Below, piece after piece: positions 12,233 to 17,372 of a stretch of 28,134 nucleotides of DNA (position 1 is its first letter; each line of letters begins with the position of its first letter). Position numbers and translations under genes: made by a program. This DNA is from an uncultured Thermoplasmata archaeon (GTDB lineage Archaea; Thermoplasmatota; B47-G6). Under the pieces are notes generated by a model. It was given only the letters and a program-made list of their open reading frames with translations. It ran no database searches and was not told where the DNA came from. The stretch spans positions 1-28,134 of the forward strand of contig CBEVQP010000001.1 of NCBI GenBank assembly GCA_965552035.1. The letters run 5' to 3'.

Positions 12233-13402
12233 TTGGTGAGAGGTATGGATATATGGGAGCTACCTACCCCTGCAGTTCTTGTAGACGTTAATAGACTTAT
12301 GAGAAATATTGAGAGAGCCTCTAAAGAAGCAAGGGAGAATGGAAAAGAAATTTGGCCTATGGTAAAGACGCACAAATCTAGTTATATAGCATCACTTCAA
12401 AAGAAATTTGGAGCAAAAGGATTTTTGTGTGGAACACTTGATGAGCTAGAGATATTGGCCAATAAAAATATTAGTAAAAGAATAATGTTGGCATATCCTG
12501 TGGCTGACAATCAAAATTTTGATCGGTTAGCAAGAATCATTGAAAAAGGGGTAGAAATAATTGTTAGACTTGATAACGTTGATAACGCGAGATTTTTAGA
12601 CGAAAATGCCAGAGAAAGAGGAATCGAAATAAATTATGTATTAAAAATTAATACTGGGCTGAATAGGCTTGGAGTGTCGCCTTCGAATGTCCTAAAATTC
12701 TTGAAAAAGGTTGAGAAATATAAGAGTTTGAATTTCATAGGAATATCTACTCATTCAGGGCACGTTTATGGAGTTGCTGGATCAAAGGAAGTTGAAAAGG
12801 TAGCAAAAGAAACCTCCCAGATAATGGGTCGCGTTGCTAGGGAACTAGAAAATAATGGTTACACCCTTGAAATTGTGGGCACAGGATCAACGCCAACTTT
12901 AAGATATGATCTGAGGGAGGAAATATACACGCACATATTTCCCGGGAACTATGTATTTTATGATAGGCTGCAGGTTTTTGTTTACGAATCTGCAACGTTA
13001 GAAGACTGTGCGTTGACAGTATTGGCAACGATTATTTCTATTCCGGAGCATTCAAACGGAAACATGGCAGTCATTAATGTGGGGAGTAAAATATTGGGCC
13101 TAGATAAGGGAGCGCACGGAAAGTCTGCAGTTGAGGGATATGGATACATTATTGAATATCCAGAGGCAGTAGTTTCGAGCTTATCAGAGGAAGTTGGCAA
13201 AGTTCTCTTTAATAGTAGTGATCGAGCAAAAGTAGGGGAAAAGATAAGAATAATACCCAACCATTCATGTGTCGTGTGTAATAATACGAGTTTTATAGTT
13301 TTACACGAAGACGAACGTGTACGTGGCGTAGTTCGTGTAGATATGAGAAATGGTGTCAGGAACATCTTTAAGGCTATACCTATGGTAGACTCTGAGATGT
13401 AG
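12233..13402 (+). CDS. Fold-type III PLP enzyme, DSD1 / D-threonine aldolase family (D-serine dehydratase-like)
   Basis: TPAVLVD, VKTHKS (PLP Lys), HSGH, GTGSTPT, PGNYVFYD, SEEVG, IPNHSC; GTG start. Confidence 0.85.
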   Translation: MVRGMDIWELPTPAVLVDVNRLMRNIERASKEARENGKEIWPMVKTHKSSYIASLQKKFGAKGFLCGTLDELEILANKNISKRIMLAYPVADNQNFDRLARIIEKGVEIIVRLDNVDNARFLDENARERGIEINYVLKINTGLNRLGVSPSNVLKFLKKVEKYKSLNFIGISTHSGHVYGVAGSKEVEKVAKETSQIMGRVARELENNGYTLEIVGTGSTPTLRYDLREEIYTHIFPGNYVFYDRLQVFVYESATLEDCALTVLATIISIPEHSNGNMAVINVGSKILGLDKGAHGKSAVEGYGYIIEYPEAVVSSLSEEVGKVLFNSSDRAKVGEKIRIIPNHSCVVCNNTSFIVLHEDERVRGVVRVDMRNGVRNIFKAIPMVDSEM

Positions 13403-13817: not shown

Positions 13818-14054
13818 CTATACGCAAATATATACGTCCTTCTCAACACAGTTCTCTATATTCAAATCAATCCCACAAGCTTCGGCATGTGTTTTACCTT
13901 TTAAGCTCAAATGAGGTCTTAAGAAGTTATAGTAAACAAACCAACCATCTAACCATATCTTAGCTGTTTCTTCACTTTTCAAATGCCTTAGAGGTTTTAG
14001 CCTATCCTTTAAAGTTTCGTGCAATTTTTCAACAATATTGTTCGTTTCTCTTGC
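13818..14054 (-). pseudogene. C-terminal fragment of a DDE-type transposase/integrase (IS6-like/rve-type)
   Basis: ETNNIVEKLHETLKDR...YYNFLRPHLSLKGKTHAEACGI matches the typical NNxxERxHxTLK...YNxxRPHxSLxGKTPAE C-terminus; the N-terminal DDE part is absent. Confidence 0.75.
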
Positions 14055-14679
14055 TTTTATCCTTGCTTTTCTTGCTGCGTTCTCCACTATTTGCTGAATT
14101 GTTCTTTTGTTGTATTTTCTACCTCTTTGTGATATGAAAACTAAACCTTGCTTATTAACGCCATAAATTTCCAACATTTCTTTTAATTTCGAATGCAGGA
14201 ATACAACCTTTTTCTTTTCCCTTTAGCTGTTTTAACATGAATAATACCCCTATCAAAGTCTATGTCTTGACATTTCAGATTTCTAACTTCATCTAAGCGA
14301 AGATCAGCATAGTAAAGAAGCATCAAAACAAGTTTGTGCTTAATGTTTGTAGTTACTTTAATCATTCTGCATATTTCTTCTCTGCTTAATACCAAAGGTA
14401 GTTTCAAACTCTTCCTAGCCAATGGTAGCTTCTCATTAAACACGTTTTCGTAGAAGAATTTCAAAGCAAAATAAGCACCTCTCATGGCTGATCTGCTTTT
14501 ACTGGAGTAAGAAAGCAGGAATTCTCTGGGCGTTTTTCCAGATTTTAGAAACCTTCTCACAACTGAGATGTAAGCTTTGCCTGTTTGGTAAGAATACTTC
14601 CTTAGCTTTATTTCTTCTATAAGTTTGCCTATCAGTTCATATCGTTCTTGTGGGTAAGCTTTTTAATATCCAAGTCCAT
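14055..14679 (-). pseudogene. Broken tyrosine recombinase (N-terminal SAM-like domain + first half of catalytic domain)
   Basis: Reconstructed MDLDIKKL/QERYELIGKLIEEIKLRKYSYQTGKAYISVV...KLPLVLSREE...LLYYADLRLDEVRNL...DIDFDRGIIHVKTAKG/KVVFLHSKLKEML...GLVFISQRGRKYNKRTIQQIVENAARKARIK; frameshifts near 14650 and in the A-run near 14207-14220; truncated before HxLRH and the catalytic Tyr. Confidence 0.85.
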
Positions 14680-14700
14680 AGGAAATTGTATGAAATTCAG

Positions 14701-14711
14701 CTTTATAAAAG
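14701..14711. promoter_or_regulatory. TATA box CTTTATAAAAG, usable in both directions (recombinase promoter; possible cassette promoter)
   Basis: Palindromic TTTATAAA centred about 27 nt upstream of the recombinase ATG (14679), fitting a leaderless archaeal promoter. Confidence 0.5.
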
Positions 14712-14721
14712 CTCGCTTTAA

Positions 14722-14774
14722 CTCCCATTTGGGAGATTATACGAATAAAAAGTGCGTGAAATATGCGTTAAGTG
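14722..14774 (+). other. Candidate attI-like site ending in core site G|TTAAGTG
   Basis: GTTAAGT (14767-14773) fits GTTRRRY, lies between the divergent recombinase and the cassette gene, and is preceded by palindrome CTCCCA-TT-TGGGAG (14722-14735). Confidence 0.55.
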
Positions 14775-14777
14775 AAA

Positions 14778-14791
14778 TGCCCAAGCCCGCT
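14778..14791. repeat. Left arm of a 14-bp perfect inverted repeat TGCCCAAGCCCGCT
   Basis: Exact reverse complement AGCGGGCTTGGGCA at 15340-15353; the pair brackets the cassette ORF. Confidence 0.9.
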
Positions 14792-14816
14792 GAAATAAGA
14801 TTGAGGTGTGGAAATT

Positions 14817-15320
14817 ATGTATAAGAAAAATATTACTCACTTAATTGGTCATATAATTTATATTGGCCTATATGGCCTGTTAATAATATCCGCTATTATT
14901 CTCTACAATTCTGCTAATTTGGTAGAATTATTGTATATAGGATGGGTAACCTTGGTATTGGGAATTGTTTTTCTATTATGGTCGAGCCAATCACGAAAGA
15001 AAGGGCGAGTAGGAGAAGGCATTAACAAAGAGACCCTTGTTGAAAATGGCATGTATGCCTTTGTTCGTCATCCAGAATTCTTGGGACATATCTTGATCAT
15101 CTCTGCATTGATAATCATTTCACAACACTGGATTAACTTGGTTATTGGTGTAATCTTAATTATTTTATTATGTTTTGCCATGATAGAAGAAGAAAAACGA
15201 AACATAGAAAAGTTTGGTGATGCGTACAGAGATTATATGAAAAGAGTCCCAAGAATAAATTTATTAATTGGAATTATGAGGCAAATACGCAGTAAGAAAG
15301 AAAATAAAGAGAGAAGATAA
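14817..15320 (+). CDS. Isoprenylcysteine carboxylmethyltransferase (ICMT/PEMT)-family membrane protein (cassette gene)
   Basis: TM helices, LVENGMYAFVRHPEFLG, EEEKRNIEKFGDAYRDYMKRVPR; RBS GAGGTG at 14803-14808 favours ATG 14817. Confidence 0.85.
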   Translation: MYKKNITHLIGHIIYIGLYGLLIISAIILYNSANLVELLYIGWVTLVLGIVFLLWSSQSRKKGRVGEGINKETLVENGMYAFVRHPEFLGHILIISALIIISQHWINLVIGVILIILLCFAMIEEEKRNIEKFGDAYRDYMKRVPRINLLIGIMRQIRSKKENKERR

Positions 15321-15339
15321 AATGATTTGGAATTTAATA

Positions 15340-15353
15340 AGCGGGCTTGGGCA
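15340..15353. repeat. Right arm of the 14-bp perfect inverted repeat (AGCGGGCTTGGGCA)
   Basis: Reverse complement of 14778-14791. Confidence 0.9.
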
Positions 15354-15388
15354 CTTTGCGGCTTCGTACCTTGCCCCCATTGGGAGTC

Positions 15389-15469
15389 ACTTAACAGCGG
15401 ATAAACAGTTCTCCTTCGTCTTGCCAAAACCCACTTTGTGGGCTTCGTTTATCTACAATTTTGTTATGC
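15389..15469 (+). other. attC-like recombination site (81 bp)
   Basis: R'' ACTTAAC (RYYYAAC) 15389-15395; L'' GATAAAC 15400-15406; L' GTTTATC 15447-15453; inner hairpin CCCAC-TTT-GTGGG 15430-15442; R' GTTATGC 15463-15469 (one deviation from GTTRRRY). Confidence 0.75.
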
Positions 15470-15542
15470 CAACAATAAGTTAACAGAACCGCACAATGCA
15501 ATGTTTATATATGATGCAGACATAGCGTTGAAACAGAGAGTG

Positions 15543-15602: not shown

Positions 15603-15736
15603 ATTGTTCCCTTTTCCACTGCTTATTATAAATATGAATAAAAGGATAATATACGAGGCTAAGATATATTCTCTTCAATCGCAGAAGTGAAGAAGGCTCT
15701 TCATGTTTATGCACAAGCTCTATACATGTTTGTAAG

Positions 15737-15789
15737 TTTCCTCTTTAAGGGGGAAATTTTAAATGAAGATTTCCCCCTGCAGGGGGAAA
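15737..15789. promoter_or_regulatory. Two tandem 20-bp palindromes (candidate operators) upstream of the ATPase promoter
   Basis: TTTCCTCTTTAAGGGGGAAA (15737-15756, 2 mismatched pairs) and perfect TTTCCCCCTGCAGGGGGAAA (15770-15789), 33 bp apart, abutting TATA-like CATTATAAAG (15790-15799). Confidence 0.65.
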
Positions 15790-15824
15790 CATTATAAAGT
15801 CTGATATTTATATGTATTAATACT

Positions 15825-17090
15825 ATGAACCTCGTTCGATATCTCATTGACAAAAAGGAAGACATAAAAGAGCTGTCTGTGAAAGAGAGACTTATAGCTG
15901 TATCACCAAACAGGAACTTTATAGTTTCGATTATCGGACCAAGAAGATCTGGTAAGACGTATTTTCTTTACTACTTTATAAAGAAGAACCGAATAAATGA
16001 CGAAGATTATGTTTTTGTGAACTTTGAGGAACACGTGCAATTCGGGGATCCTCTTAAAATACCCTTTGTACATCAGGAAATATACGGAAAACATCCTGAT
16101 TTTATATTCTTCGACGAAGTCCAAGCACTAGGTAATTGGGACAGGGTTATTTACAGCCTCTACGAGAAGAAAAGATATTATATATTCGTCACAGGATCAT
16201 CGTCTAAGCTCCTCTCTTACGAGATAGCAACACATCTGAGAGGAAGAACTATGCGAGTGAATGTGTATCCATTCTCAATGCGGGAGATACTCTCAATGCA
16301 TGGTCTCGGGGCAAAGAGACACTATTCTTCATACGAGGAGGCTAAGATAAAAAGTATCATAAACAAGCACATATACACGCAGTTCCCCGATGTAGTTCTT
16401 GGTAACATCCGCCCAAAGACTTTCTTTACGGACTATCTTGATCTCGTCATCTACAAGGATATCGTTGAGAGATACGGTATAAAGAACAGATACGTTCTTG
16501 AACTGTTTCTGAGAAGCGTAATATCATCGCATACAAAGGAGTTTTCTGTAAGCAAGCAGTACAACATCCTTAAGTCTCAAGGGATAAAGGTTGCAAAAAA
16601 GACGTTGTATAACTTTCAGAAGATATTGGAAGACATACAGCTAGCGTTCTTTCTAAGGAAGTACTCTCCAAGTCTGAAAAAAGCAGAAATAACGATCCCG
16701 AAGGTATATCTTGTGGATTCGGGTTTATACAACTTTATCATTGGTAAAGATTTTTCAAAAAGCCTAGAGAGCATAGTTTTCTTGGAGTTGATAAAGGGAG
16801 GGCTGAGACCCAACAGAGAGATCTTCTACTATAAAACGAAGTCGGGGAAGGAGGTTGATTTTGTAATAAGGGATAATGGAAAAACACACGTTATAGAAGT
16901 AACACATGAAGTGGACGAGGATCACATCAAAAAATCTGTAACAGCGTCTAATGAGTTGAAAGCAAACAGCGTAACTATAGTCACCTGGGACGATGAGGAT
17001 ACAATAAGGAGATCAGGAAAAGAGGTTAAAATAGTCCCGTTTTGGAAGTGGATTTTGAGATTTGCAAACAATATTTCAATGAGACATTAA
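15825..17090 (+). CDS. AAA+ ATPase with DUF4143-type C-terminal domain (AAA_14 family)
   Basis: Walker A GPRRSGKT, Walker B FFDEVQ, VTGSSSKLL...LRGR, PFSMRE, KVYLVDSG, ESIVFLEL, EVDFVI (PD-(D/E)xK-like C-terminus). Confidence 0.92.
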   Translation: MNLVRYLIDKKEDIKELSVKERLIAVSPNRNFIVSIIGPRRSGKTYFLYYFIKKNRINDEDYVFVNFEEHVQFGDPLKIPFVHQEIYGKHPDFIFFDEVQALGNWDRVIYSLYEKKRYYIFVTGSSSKLLSYEIATHLRGRTMRVNVYPFSMREILSMHGLGAKRHYSSYEEAKIKSIINKHIYTQFPDVVLGNIRPKTFFTDYLDLVIYKDIVERYGIKNRYVLELFLRSVISSHTKEFSVSKQYNILKSQGIKVAKKTLYNFQKILEDIQLAFFLRKYSPSLKKAEITIPKVYLVDSGLYNFIIGKDFSKSLESIVFLELIKGGLRPNREIFYYKTKSGKEVDFVIRDNGKTHVIEVTHEVDEDHIKKSVTASNELKANSVTIVTWDDEDTIRRSGKEVKIVPFWKWILRFANNISMRH

Positions 17091-17372
17091 CAACGATTTT
17101 CCATCCTGTCCTCTTCCGTGAATAGATTTACTTTGTGGTCGCCCGCGTCCTATATTTGGGTAATAACGGAAACTTACTCTATACACGAGTGATATAACCT
17201 CGGGGCGGGGGAGATAATGATAAAGCTCTTTCCGGATGAGGAAAGAAGATCTTTCCGGGGTTTCGGAAATAATAATTATTCTGCCTGTTCTTCCTTTGGT
17301 AAATAATATGAGTGCAAATCGTCTGCTTTTATTGGAGATTGTGAAAGGAATCATAATATAATGTGGAGGCAT
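17076..17372 (-). other. Uncertain ORF, possibly a remnant of a frameshifted membrane-anchored protein
   Basis: 98-aa ORF without motifs; a hydrophobic stretch (LILMMAGLMLLLSLFSFFL) lies just upstream in another frame. Confidence 0.2.

Follow-up and report, generated by a model that had tools for sequence, protein, structure and literature searches.

A fossil integron-type platform in a Thermoplasmata archaeon and an insertion-less, IntI-related recombinase clade beside archaeal attC arrays

Anatomy of the platform

We analyzed a 28,134-nucleotide stretch of DNA (the window) from an uncultured Thermoplasmata archaeon; it is the entire contig C1 of a metagenome-assembled genome (MAG) of 1.25 Mb that is 84% complete. 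Near its middle lie a decayed tyrosine-recombinase gene on the minus strand and, reading away from it on the plus strand, an attI-like site, a single gene cassette and an attC-like site. An earlier note, made from the letters alone, had read this arrangement as textbook integron geometry (intI, attI, cassette, attC) around a pseudogene with a single cassette. The recombinase, the core sites, the single open reading frame (ORF), the attC-like site and the protein string that it described are all present where it placed them. Its pseudogene call also held: we located two 1-nt deletions and found in addition that the catalytic C-terminus has been replaced by the remnant of a transposase from an insertion sequence (IS). 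The features are listed below.

14052 to 14679, minus strand: tyrosine-recombinase pseudogene of the insertion-less IntI-like clade, with its ATG at 14679
14652 to 14653, minus strand: first frameshift; one nucleotide is lost near the N-terminus (alignment to locus L049 and translation)
14219 to 14220, minus strand: second frameshift; one nucleotide is lost from an A-rich run just past the KG hairpin (alignment to L049 and L031 and three-frame translation)
13821 to 14051, minus strand: IS remnant, an rve-superfamily DDE transposase of which the final 77 aa are left, continuing the frame of the truncated recombinase
14702 to 14719, between the recombinase start and the attI-like site: TATA-like box, then TCGCTTT
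14757 to 14778, plus strand: attI-like site with presumed crossover at G14767/T14768, 88 nt from the recombinase ATG
14768 to 15463, plus strand: gene cassette in its linear integrated form, 696 nt from TTAAGTG to the G of R' (homology to L037)
14779 to 14791, plus strand: left arm of a 13-nt perfect inverted repeat, just inside the cassette end (94% over 17 nt)
14817 to 15320, plus strand: cassette ORF, 167-aa membrane methyltransferase of the ICMT/PEMT/DUF1295 type (Pfam)
15340 to 15352, plus strand: right arm of the 13-nt inverted repeat, partner of 14779 to 14791
15388 to 15470, plus strand: attC-like site, with R'' at 15389 to 15395, L'' at 15399 to 15406, L' at 15447 to 15453 and R' at 15463 to 15469
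15463 to 15490, plus strand: conserved tail of 27-28 nt behind the last R', up to the right end of the shared block at 15490

The window recombinase retains the N-terminal domain, the core-binding region, Arg I and the KG hairpin, and its fragment belongs to the tyrosine recombinase fold (PF00589; Pfam Phage_integrase, 38 bits). It ends at about 14052, before HxxR, and also lacks the second His/Trp and the catalytic Tyr; with its catalytic C-terminus gone, it cannot be active. The window copy is a fossil platform with one cassette. The best NCBIfam matches of the fragment were TIGR02249 (77 bits) and XerA_Arch (68 bits), both far under cut-off. It is 52-54% identical to intact homologues of 270-273 aa in genomes G030 and G020 and 68-79% identical to further decayed copies, and its closest relatives (L028-L031 and L049, 68-85% identical) are all pseudogenes, decayed by in-frame TAA or TAG stops, internal deletions or truncation; one of these decayed relatives is identical in three separate samples. 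A search for the missing C-terminus across the window's own genome returned only the XerA gene on contig C54 and an unrelated fragment on C35. That fragment (G000:C35:10184-10501; L097 1458-1845) is a tyrosine-recombinase C-terminus with two in-frame TAG stops, and its tail, IKGPLD, resembles that of IntI-like proteins with an SPLD tail; the fragment does not supply the lost half of the window gene.

The cassette is bounded by two core 8-mers, GTTAAGTG (14767-14774) and CACTTAAC (15388-15395), each of which occurs once in the window, and the R'' CACTTAAC complements the left end. Because 1.3% of all positions have an 8-mer complement 300-900 nt downstream, this complementarity alone is weak evidence; it is what the cassette model predicts, the left end being the displaced half of the cassette's own R'. 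Window positions 14766-15397 are 88% identical at the nucleotide level to L037, where they lie in an unrelated array context (L037-L041), and the match runs from GTTAAGTG to just beyond CACTTAAC. Homology to L042/L045, L046 and L057 starts at 14765-14767, the same left border. As this homology runs from border to border in other contexts, the unit between both 8-mers is a mobile gene cassette.

The cassette ORF scored 37 bits against PEMT, 33 bits against DUF1295 and 30 bits against ICMT in Pfam, and 50 bits, under cut-off, against isopcys_mtase in NCBIfam. We found the cassette in at least eight archaeal lineages, with protein identities of 64-87% in Thermofilaceae, Archaeoglobi, Thermoplasmatales, Baldrarchaeota, Bathyarchaeota, Methanophagales (three copies within one MAG), Hadarchaeota and Methanosarcinales, and relatives of the protein also occur in records named as Thermotogae and Patescibacteria. 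The methyltransferase cassette is a clean case of one cassette spread over many archaeal phyla. At L037-L039 it stands in a co-oriented row of DinB_2, the methyltransferase gene, a 63-aa ORF, a 229-aa ORF, Lactamase_B and MazE/PIN, and hairpin sites separate the first members of this row. The 13-nt inverted repeat inside the cassette persists in diverged form in L039 and L049, where compensation is not clear, and about 0.8 such 13-mer repeats within 1 kb are expected per window. It may extend the stem of the circular cassette or pair the ends of the mRNA.

The attC-like site folds no better than shuffled sequences when taken singly (z +0.03 and -0.66 for 15388-15470); its stems are short, so the structure becomes visible only by comparison. 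A generic detector combining AAC...GTT with hairpin energy gave equal matches in controls and on both strands; as it was non-specific, covariance models were used instead. These scored the window site at 63.2 bits (model R1, E value ~1e-11) and 52.7 bits (R2). Copies of the gene in L049, L039, L047 and L054 are followed by homologous sites, relative to which the L stem shows compensatory changes (for example GGATAAAC/GTTTATC versus GGATATGT/ACATATCC). Across nine sites, 82.8% of cells were paired, compared with 26-46% with slid partners, and nine pairs showed double changes, compared with 0-4. Across 25 sites, in an alignment fitted to the model, the figures were 84.7% versus 25-45%, with a covariation score of 0.39 versus at most 0.12; in both tests the structure had been drawn from the same sequences. 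Both the R''/R' and the L''/L' stems covary, as in the imperfect hairpin of an attC, and the family has canonical ..AAC and GTT.. cores. Its spacer geometry is non-canonical: spacers are one-sided, as 1-2 nt follow R'' and 3-6 nt precede R'. The window site is the only member of the family in its own genome, which therefore holds no cluster of attC sites lacking an integrase (CALIN; at least 2 attCs within 4 kb and no intI).

The 27-nt tail behind R' likewise follows an attC in L037-L041, in L049 and, in diverged form, in L056; its right boundary is identical in three contexts (L039 6046-6072; L049 6633-6660). At L039 it follows the different, 63-aa cassette, as if this had been inserted between the attC of the methyltransferase cassette and the tail. 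The tail may be the displaced right half of an ancestral attI, or a platform border. The entire block from 14101 to 15490 (recombinase remnant, intergenic region, attI-like site, cassette, attC-like site and tail) recurs at 80-85% nucleotide identity in L049, as an AT-rich insert within GC-rich DNA of a Bathyarchaeota MAG, and the recombinase is decayed there too.

The recombinase clade and its linkage to attC arrays

Intact members of the clade to which the window gene belongs are 260-280 aa long and carry full RHRY-type C-termini. The segment from GKG to HxLRH measures 69-72 aa in more than 20 intact members, 73 aa in the XerA of the window's own genome and 114 aa in IntI1; the spacing in the window recombinase, where a stretch of 52 aa follows the KG hairpin, is that of Xer. 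Profile scores of intact members and of two controls were as follows.

Intact clade members: XerA_Arch 172-207 bits (cut-off 220); TIGR02249 162-196 bits (cut-off 265), in two stretches with the insertion skipped
IntI1, control: XerA_Arch 178 bits; TIGR02249 509 bits, in one stretch
Archaeal IntI from G022, control: XerA_Arch 172 bits; TIGR02249 330 bits, in one stretch

The clade's match to TIGR02249 omits model positions ~175-235, the additional domain specific to IntI (the I2 region), and the clade falls under the curated cut-offs of both TIGR02249 and the XerA family (NF040815). In a maximum-likelihood tree the clade forms one group (96/87 support), and a branch with 98/93 support separates it, together with IntI1, the G022 IntI and other insertion-less proteins, from XerA-type and control recombinases; the tree neither settles the branching within this IntI-like group nor fixes the root. 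The window's own genome carries its XerA separately, on C54, and no true IntI. Tree, insertion and profile scores together identify the clade enzyme as related to IntI, insertion-less and distinct from XerA. The earlier note had proposed a non-IntI family with Xer-like spacing. Its observation that the insertion is missing extends from the window gene to every intact homologue examined; its placement outside IntI does not stand, and "IntI-related but insertion-less" is the better description on these sequence comparisons.

We scanned metagenomes and collected 75 recombinase loci. Every covariance-model hit in these loci fell within a clade locus, with a recombinase at least 43% identical to that of G030 (10 sites in eight non-redundant loci), and every one lay upstream of the recombinase gene on the opposite strand; about 190 kb of control loci, with recombinases at 25-39% identity, contained no attC of the family. 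Wherever a clade gene and a family attC share a contig, the attC is upstream and on the divergent strand. The same divergent geometry is found in G030 (three attCs), G058 (six), the closed genome G130 (two; clade gene at L179:9889-10707), G123, the window and L028, which holds the closest relative of the window gene in the same layout. In G030 an intact clade gene (L015:7927-8748, 273 aa, 52% identity) is followed by a divergent-strand, AT-rich array with three family attCs, an island adjoining a GC-rich core; next to the intact gene of G020 (270 aa) come first a short hairpin site that ends in GTTATAA and then a gene for a methyltransferase. Integron geometry is thus recurrent in the clade, and its loci are enriched for attCs in the orientation that the earlier note had predicted. 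Several clade loci derive from 0.1-0.2 µm groundwater filter fractions.

The clade loci share more than orientation. An attI-like motif of the ATAGNNGTT type (…TAATAG-NN-GTTA…AAT) lies at most 400 nt upstream of the gene in 18 of 21 clade loci, compared with 0 of 24 controls, and is often the 3' arm of a short hairpin. Single-sequence folding of the attI region was no better than that of shuffles. In most clade loci the G of GTT stands ~70-90 nt from the start codon; in the window, where the left core reads G|TTAAGTG at 14767, it stands 88 nt upstream of the divergent recombinase start. Sister platforms with near-identical attI regions (L100/L101/L104/L108 and L016/L119/L120) diverge from G|TT onward, the signature, as judged from these alignments, of different cassettes inserted at one point. 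Between recombinase start and attI-like site, clade loci also conserve a pair of elements, ATAAAA..TTCGCTTT, which in the window occupies 14702-14719 and is probably the TATA box and transcription factor B recognition element of a leaderless recombinase transcript.

Among 151 sampled genomes of the phylum, 35 carry the attC family and 10 the clade recombinase. The family was present in 7 of the 10 clade-bearing genomes and in 28 of the 141 others; these genomes are related and not independent. Public contigs covering the G030 array supply a further observation: unitigs end or branch at the R' core of an attC, with an alternative continuation in a sister sample, and two of the G030 cassettes occur in other contexts in an unrelated study. 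This variation is suggestive of cassette turnover, or equally of other organisms with related sites.

Two observations extend the range of such loci. In the closed 1.4-Mb genome G130, a four-gene unit of ~6 kb lies between two family attCs beside an intact clade recombinase (L179; G130:C1:611500-617700), which indicates that cassettes of this system can be operon-sized. A second insertion-less, IntI-like group (G128:C146, G134:C143, G145:C7, G129:C182 and G013:C271, the last being L017) is 35-39% identical to the G030 recombinase, with open frames of 216-392 aa. Here a family attC lies 0.6-2 kb downstream on the same strand, a "reverse integron" layout unlike that of the main clade.

Genomic setting

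Mobile-element debris, which includes the platform, separates a D-serine-dehydratase-like gene (12233-13402) from an AAA_14/DUF4143 ATPase gene (15825-17090). A contig 99.9% identical to the window is in NCBI (JAPDJS010000001.1). The debris patch has no counterpart in same-genus genomes, with which the window is not syntenic from 13.4 to 18.4 kb, and at ~70% nucleotide identity these genomes are too diverged for synteny to date the insertion. We found no tRNA genes that could serve as integration targets in the window or in L015-L017 and no direct att repeats around the platform, and a scan of the entire window against Rfam returned nothing relevant. The patch also contains the following fragment.

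13558 to ~13790: truncated Ig-like surface-protein fragment (Pfam scan)

The transposase remnant fused to the recombinase matched Pfam rve_3 (33 bits) and fell just short of the cut-off for DDE_Tnp_IS240 (26.4 bits versus 27). In NCBIfam, IS3 and IS481 outscored IS6, with every match far under cut-off. Its best relatives in the phylum are ORFs of ~400 aa, whereas an IS6-type transposase has ~230 aa, and no intact copy of the transposase is present in the window's own genome; by these scores the remnant could belong to IS481, IS3 or IS6. We considered whether the 27-nt tail (its reverse complement starts GGTTCTGTT) might be an IS6-type terminal repeat. This was unsupported, as the tail is not a repeat in the genome and the remnant's relatives are ~400 aa long.

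On the far side of the platform, the ATPase gene and the paired palindromes upstream of it (15736-15790) are 92% identical at the nucleotide level to G002:C185, compared with ~70% for other genes shared with G002, which suggests a recently exchanged or mobile gene. A sequence of ~45 nt at 17131-17175 recurs (85-91% identity) near contig ends of the same-genus genomes G001 and G002 and may represent the terminal part of a repeat or insertion sequence missing from the assemblies.

A resident integrase without the IntI insertion?

We read the window as holding the dead remnant of a small integron-type platform whose intact clade relatives most likely act as resident integrase, to which we would give a probability of roughly 0.6; the anatomical part of this statement we hold much more firmly than the mechanistic part. 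The platform comprises a divergent integrase gene, a promoter region, the attI-like site (G|TT, 14767/14768), one cassette and its attC (15388-15470). An intact enzyme would most likely bind the conserved attI-like site beside its own gene together with the folded attC hairpin on an incoming circular cassette, a hairpin made up of the R stem, a one-sided bulge of 3-6 nt and an L stem of 10-12 bp. Strand exchange would take place at the GTT/AAC core, so that cassettes would stack on the strand pointing away from the gene. The catalyst would be the clade enzyme, not a canonical IntI acting in trans, and the substrate would be a folded single strand. In the window, the platform was inactivated through IS insertion or deletion, plus the frameshifts.

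Several points weigh against a working clade integrase. The insertion is reported to be essential for attC recombination in IntI1 and VchIntIA (PMC8138268; PMC9668308; citing Messier & Roy and MacDonald et al.). In the phylum, 28 of the 35 attC-positive genomes show no clade recombinase, many of them being fragmented MAGs. True IntI occurs in four of the 151 genomes (G022, G051, G069 and G142), and G022 holds its IntI together with 7-8 attCs of the family. The contig variation at attC R' in G030 comes from metagenome unitigs and is only suggestive, and we saw neither a recombination product nor a circle nor an empty site. Both the attI motif and the attC structure were drawn up after inspection of the same sequences, and the compared genomes are related.

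If a canonical IntI moved the cassettes in trans, the insertion-less neighbor would be a degenerate or functionally different relative, whose recombination might be confined to double-stranded attI-type sites, or whose role might be to move or stabilize the platform, in either case without cassette capture. The true IntIs of the phylum, the case of G022 and the reported need for the insertion fit this account, as do the recombination of archaeal attCs by bacterial IntI1 (PMC9668308) and the pseudogene state of many close homologues of the window gene. However, only 1 of the 35 attC-positive genomes (G022) has a true IntI, its IntI contig holds no attC of this family, and the family is absent from the other three of the four IntI-bearing genomes. 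In G030 (97% complete) and the closed G130, arrays lie beside the clade enzyme and the genome has no true IntI. The conserved attI-like site beside the clade gene and the homology break at G|TT, moreover, argue for insertion at the gene's own site, and we consider a trans-acting IntI unlikely. The recombinase could also serve a larger integrative element or a genomic island as its integrase, with the arrays as cargo and their adjacency due to co-transfer. The AT-rich block of L049 in GC-rich host DNA, the AT-rich array beside the GC-rich core of G030 and the loss of synteny at 13.4-18.4 kb in the window are what an island would leave; the missing tRNA genes and direct att repeats are not. Nor would a generic island integrase be expected to keep a fixed spacing of ~70-90 nt, a fixed orientation and a conserved site near its start codon, or to yield sister platforms that differ exactly from G|TT onward, which makes this explanation quite improbable.

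The remaining two alternatives concern the window itself. Colinear 8-nt and 13-nt inverted repeats bracket an ORF beside a recombinase gene, as they would if the methyltransferase gene lay on an invertible on/off segment flipped by that recombinase. We rejected this reading, to which we attach very little credence: five near-identical contigs (L032-L036) and all homologous loci carry the gene in one orientation relative to the sites, the R'/R'' complementarity of a cassette explains the 8-nt repeat, and the recombinase is dead. An ordinary decayed integrase and an ordinary gene could also be neighbors by chance, the 8-mer complement being fortuitous. The background frequencies of 8-mer complements and 13-mer inverted repeats given above and the ordinary fold energy of the attC-like site would allow this, yet the block conserved in L049, the recurrent geometry and the other comparative evidence refute it, and next to no weight is left on it.

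Our preferred explanation, a resident clade integrase, has a broader form. An insertion-less, IntI-related lineage may be the resident integrase of attC arrays across many archaea, with a second lineage in "reverse" geometry; either folded attCs would recombine without the additional domain, or the sites would be used in another form. The platforms could then be a pre-insertion (ancestral) state of the integron, which would explain many archaeal "CALINs." We hold this tentatively, at slightly less than even odds.

We compared the platforms with known systems. As in integrons (IntI/attI/attC; for archaeal integrons and CALINs, Ghaly et al. 2022, PMC9668308), a divergent integrase gene adjoins an attI with crossover at G|TT, and promoterless-looking cassettes of a single or a few genes lie on one strand, some of them common to several phyla. 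These cassettes likewise end in an imperfect hairpin with ..AAC (R'') and GTT.. (R') cores and covarying R and L stems. Unlike in integrons, the integrase lacks the ~40-aa IntI-specific insertion and scores under the TIGR02249 cut-off (162-196 versus 265 bits), and the one-sided attC spacers leave no symmetric unpaired central spacer. IntegronFinder-type criteria would class these arrays as CALINs, and the window differs further from a typical integron in holding one cassette and a dead integrase. The clade fits the "integron-like" subgroup of simple tyrosine recombinases, in which the insertion is "not fully conserved," as described by Smyshlyaev et al. (2021, PMC8138268), in that it trees with IntI yet lacks the insertion; they hold the insertion to be essential to integron function and, in the text examined, do not connect insertion-less members with attC arrays. 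Our literature search found no paper linking insertion-less IntI-like proteins to attC arrays.

Archaeal XerA, the dif-site resolvase of chromosome dimers (NF040815), resembles the clade in length (~270-290 aa), in domain layout and in lacking the insertion, and XerA_Arch is the clade's best or near-best NCBIfam match. Unlike XerA, the clade is distributed patchily, in 10 of 151 genomes, and adjoins variable DNA, and the XerA of the window's genome is a separate gene. In the XerCD-dependent integration of CTX-type integrative mobile elements exploiting Xer (IMEX), insertion-less Xer recombinases join a folded single-stranded DNA hairpin to a double-stranded site. This resembles the mechanism proposed here, in which a folded single strand would recombine with a double-stranded site without the IntI insertion. 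The CTX-type reaction differs in using a housekeeping Xer pair, a chromosomal dif site and a whole phage, with no dedicated enzyme beside a cassette array.

Integron biology has taken the IntI-specific insertion to be what lets an Xer-like enzyme recombine folded attC sites, and surveys accordingly define integrons by that domain. Archaeal surveys report hundreds of attCs and only six IntIs (PMC9668308). If the clade is a working integrase, many arrays counted as "integrase-less" would turn out to possess one, and whether the insertion is essential would have to be reconsidered. The value of the window fossil lies in pointing to intact platforms, such as those of G130, G030 and G058, which would then offer a natural system for asking how single-strand recombination arose from Xer-type recombination.

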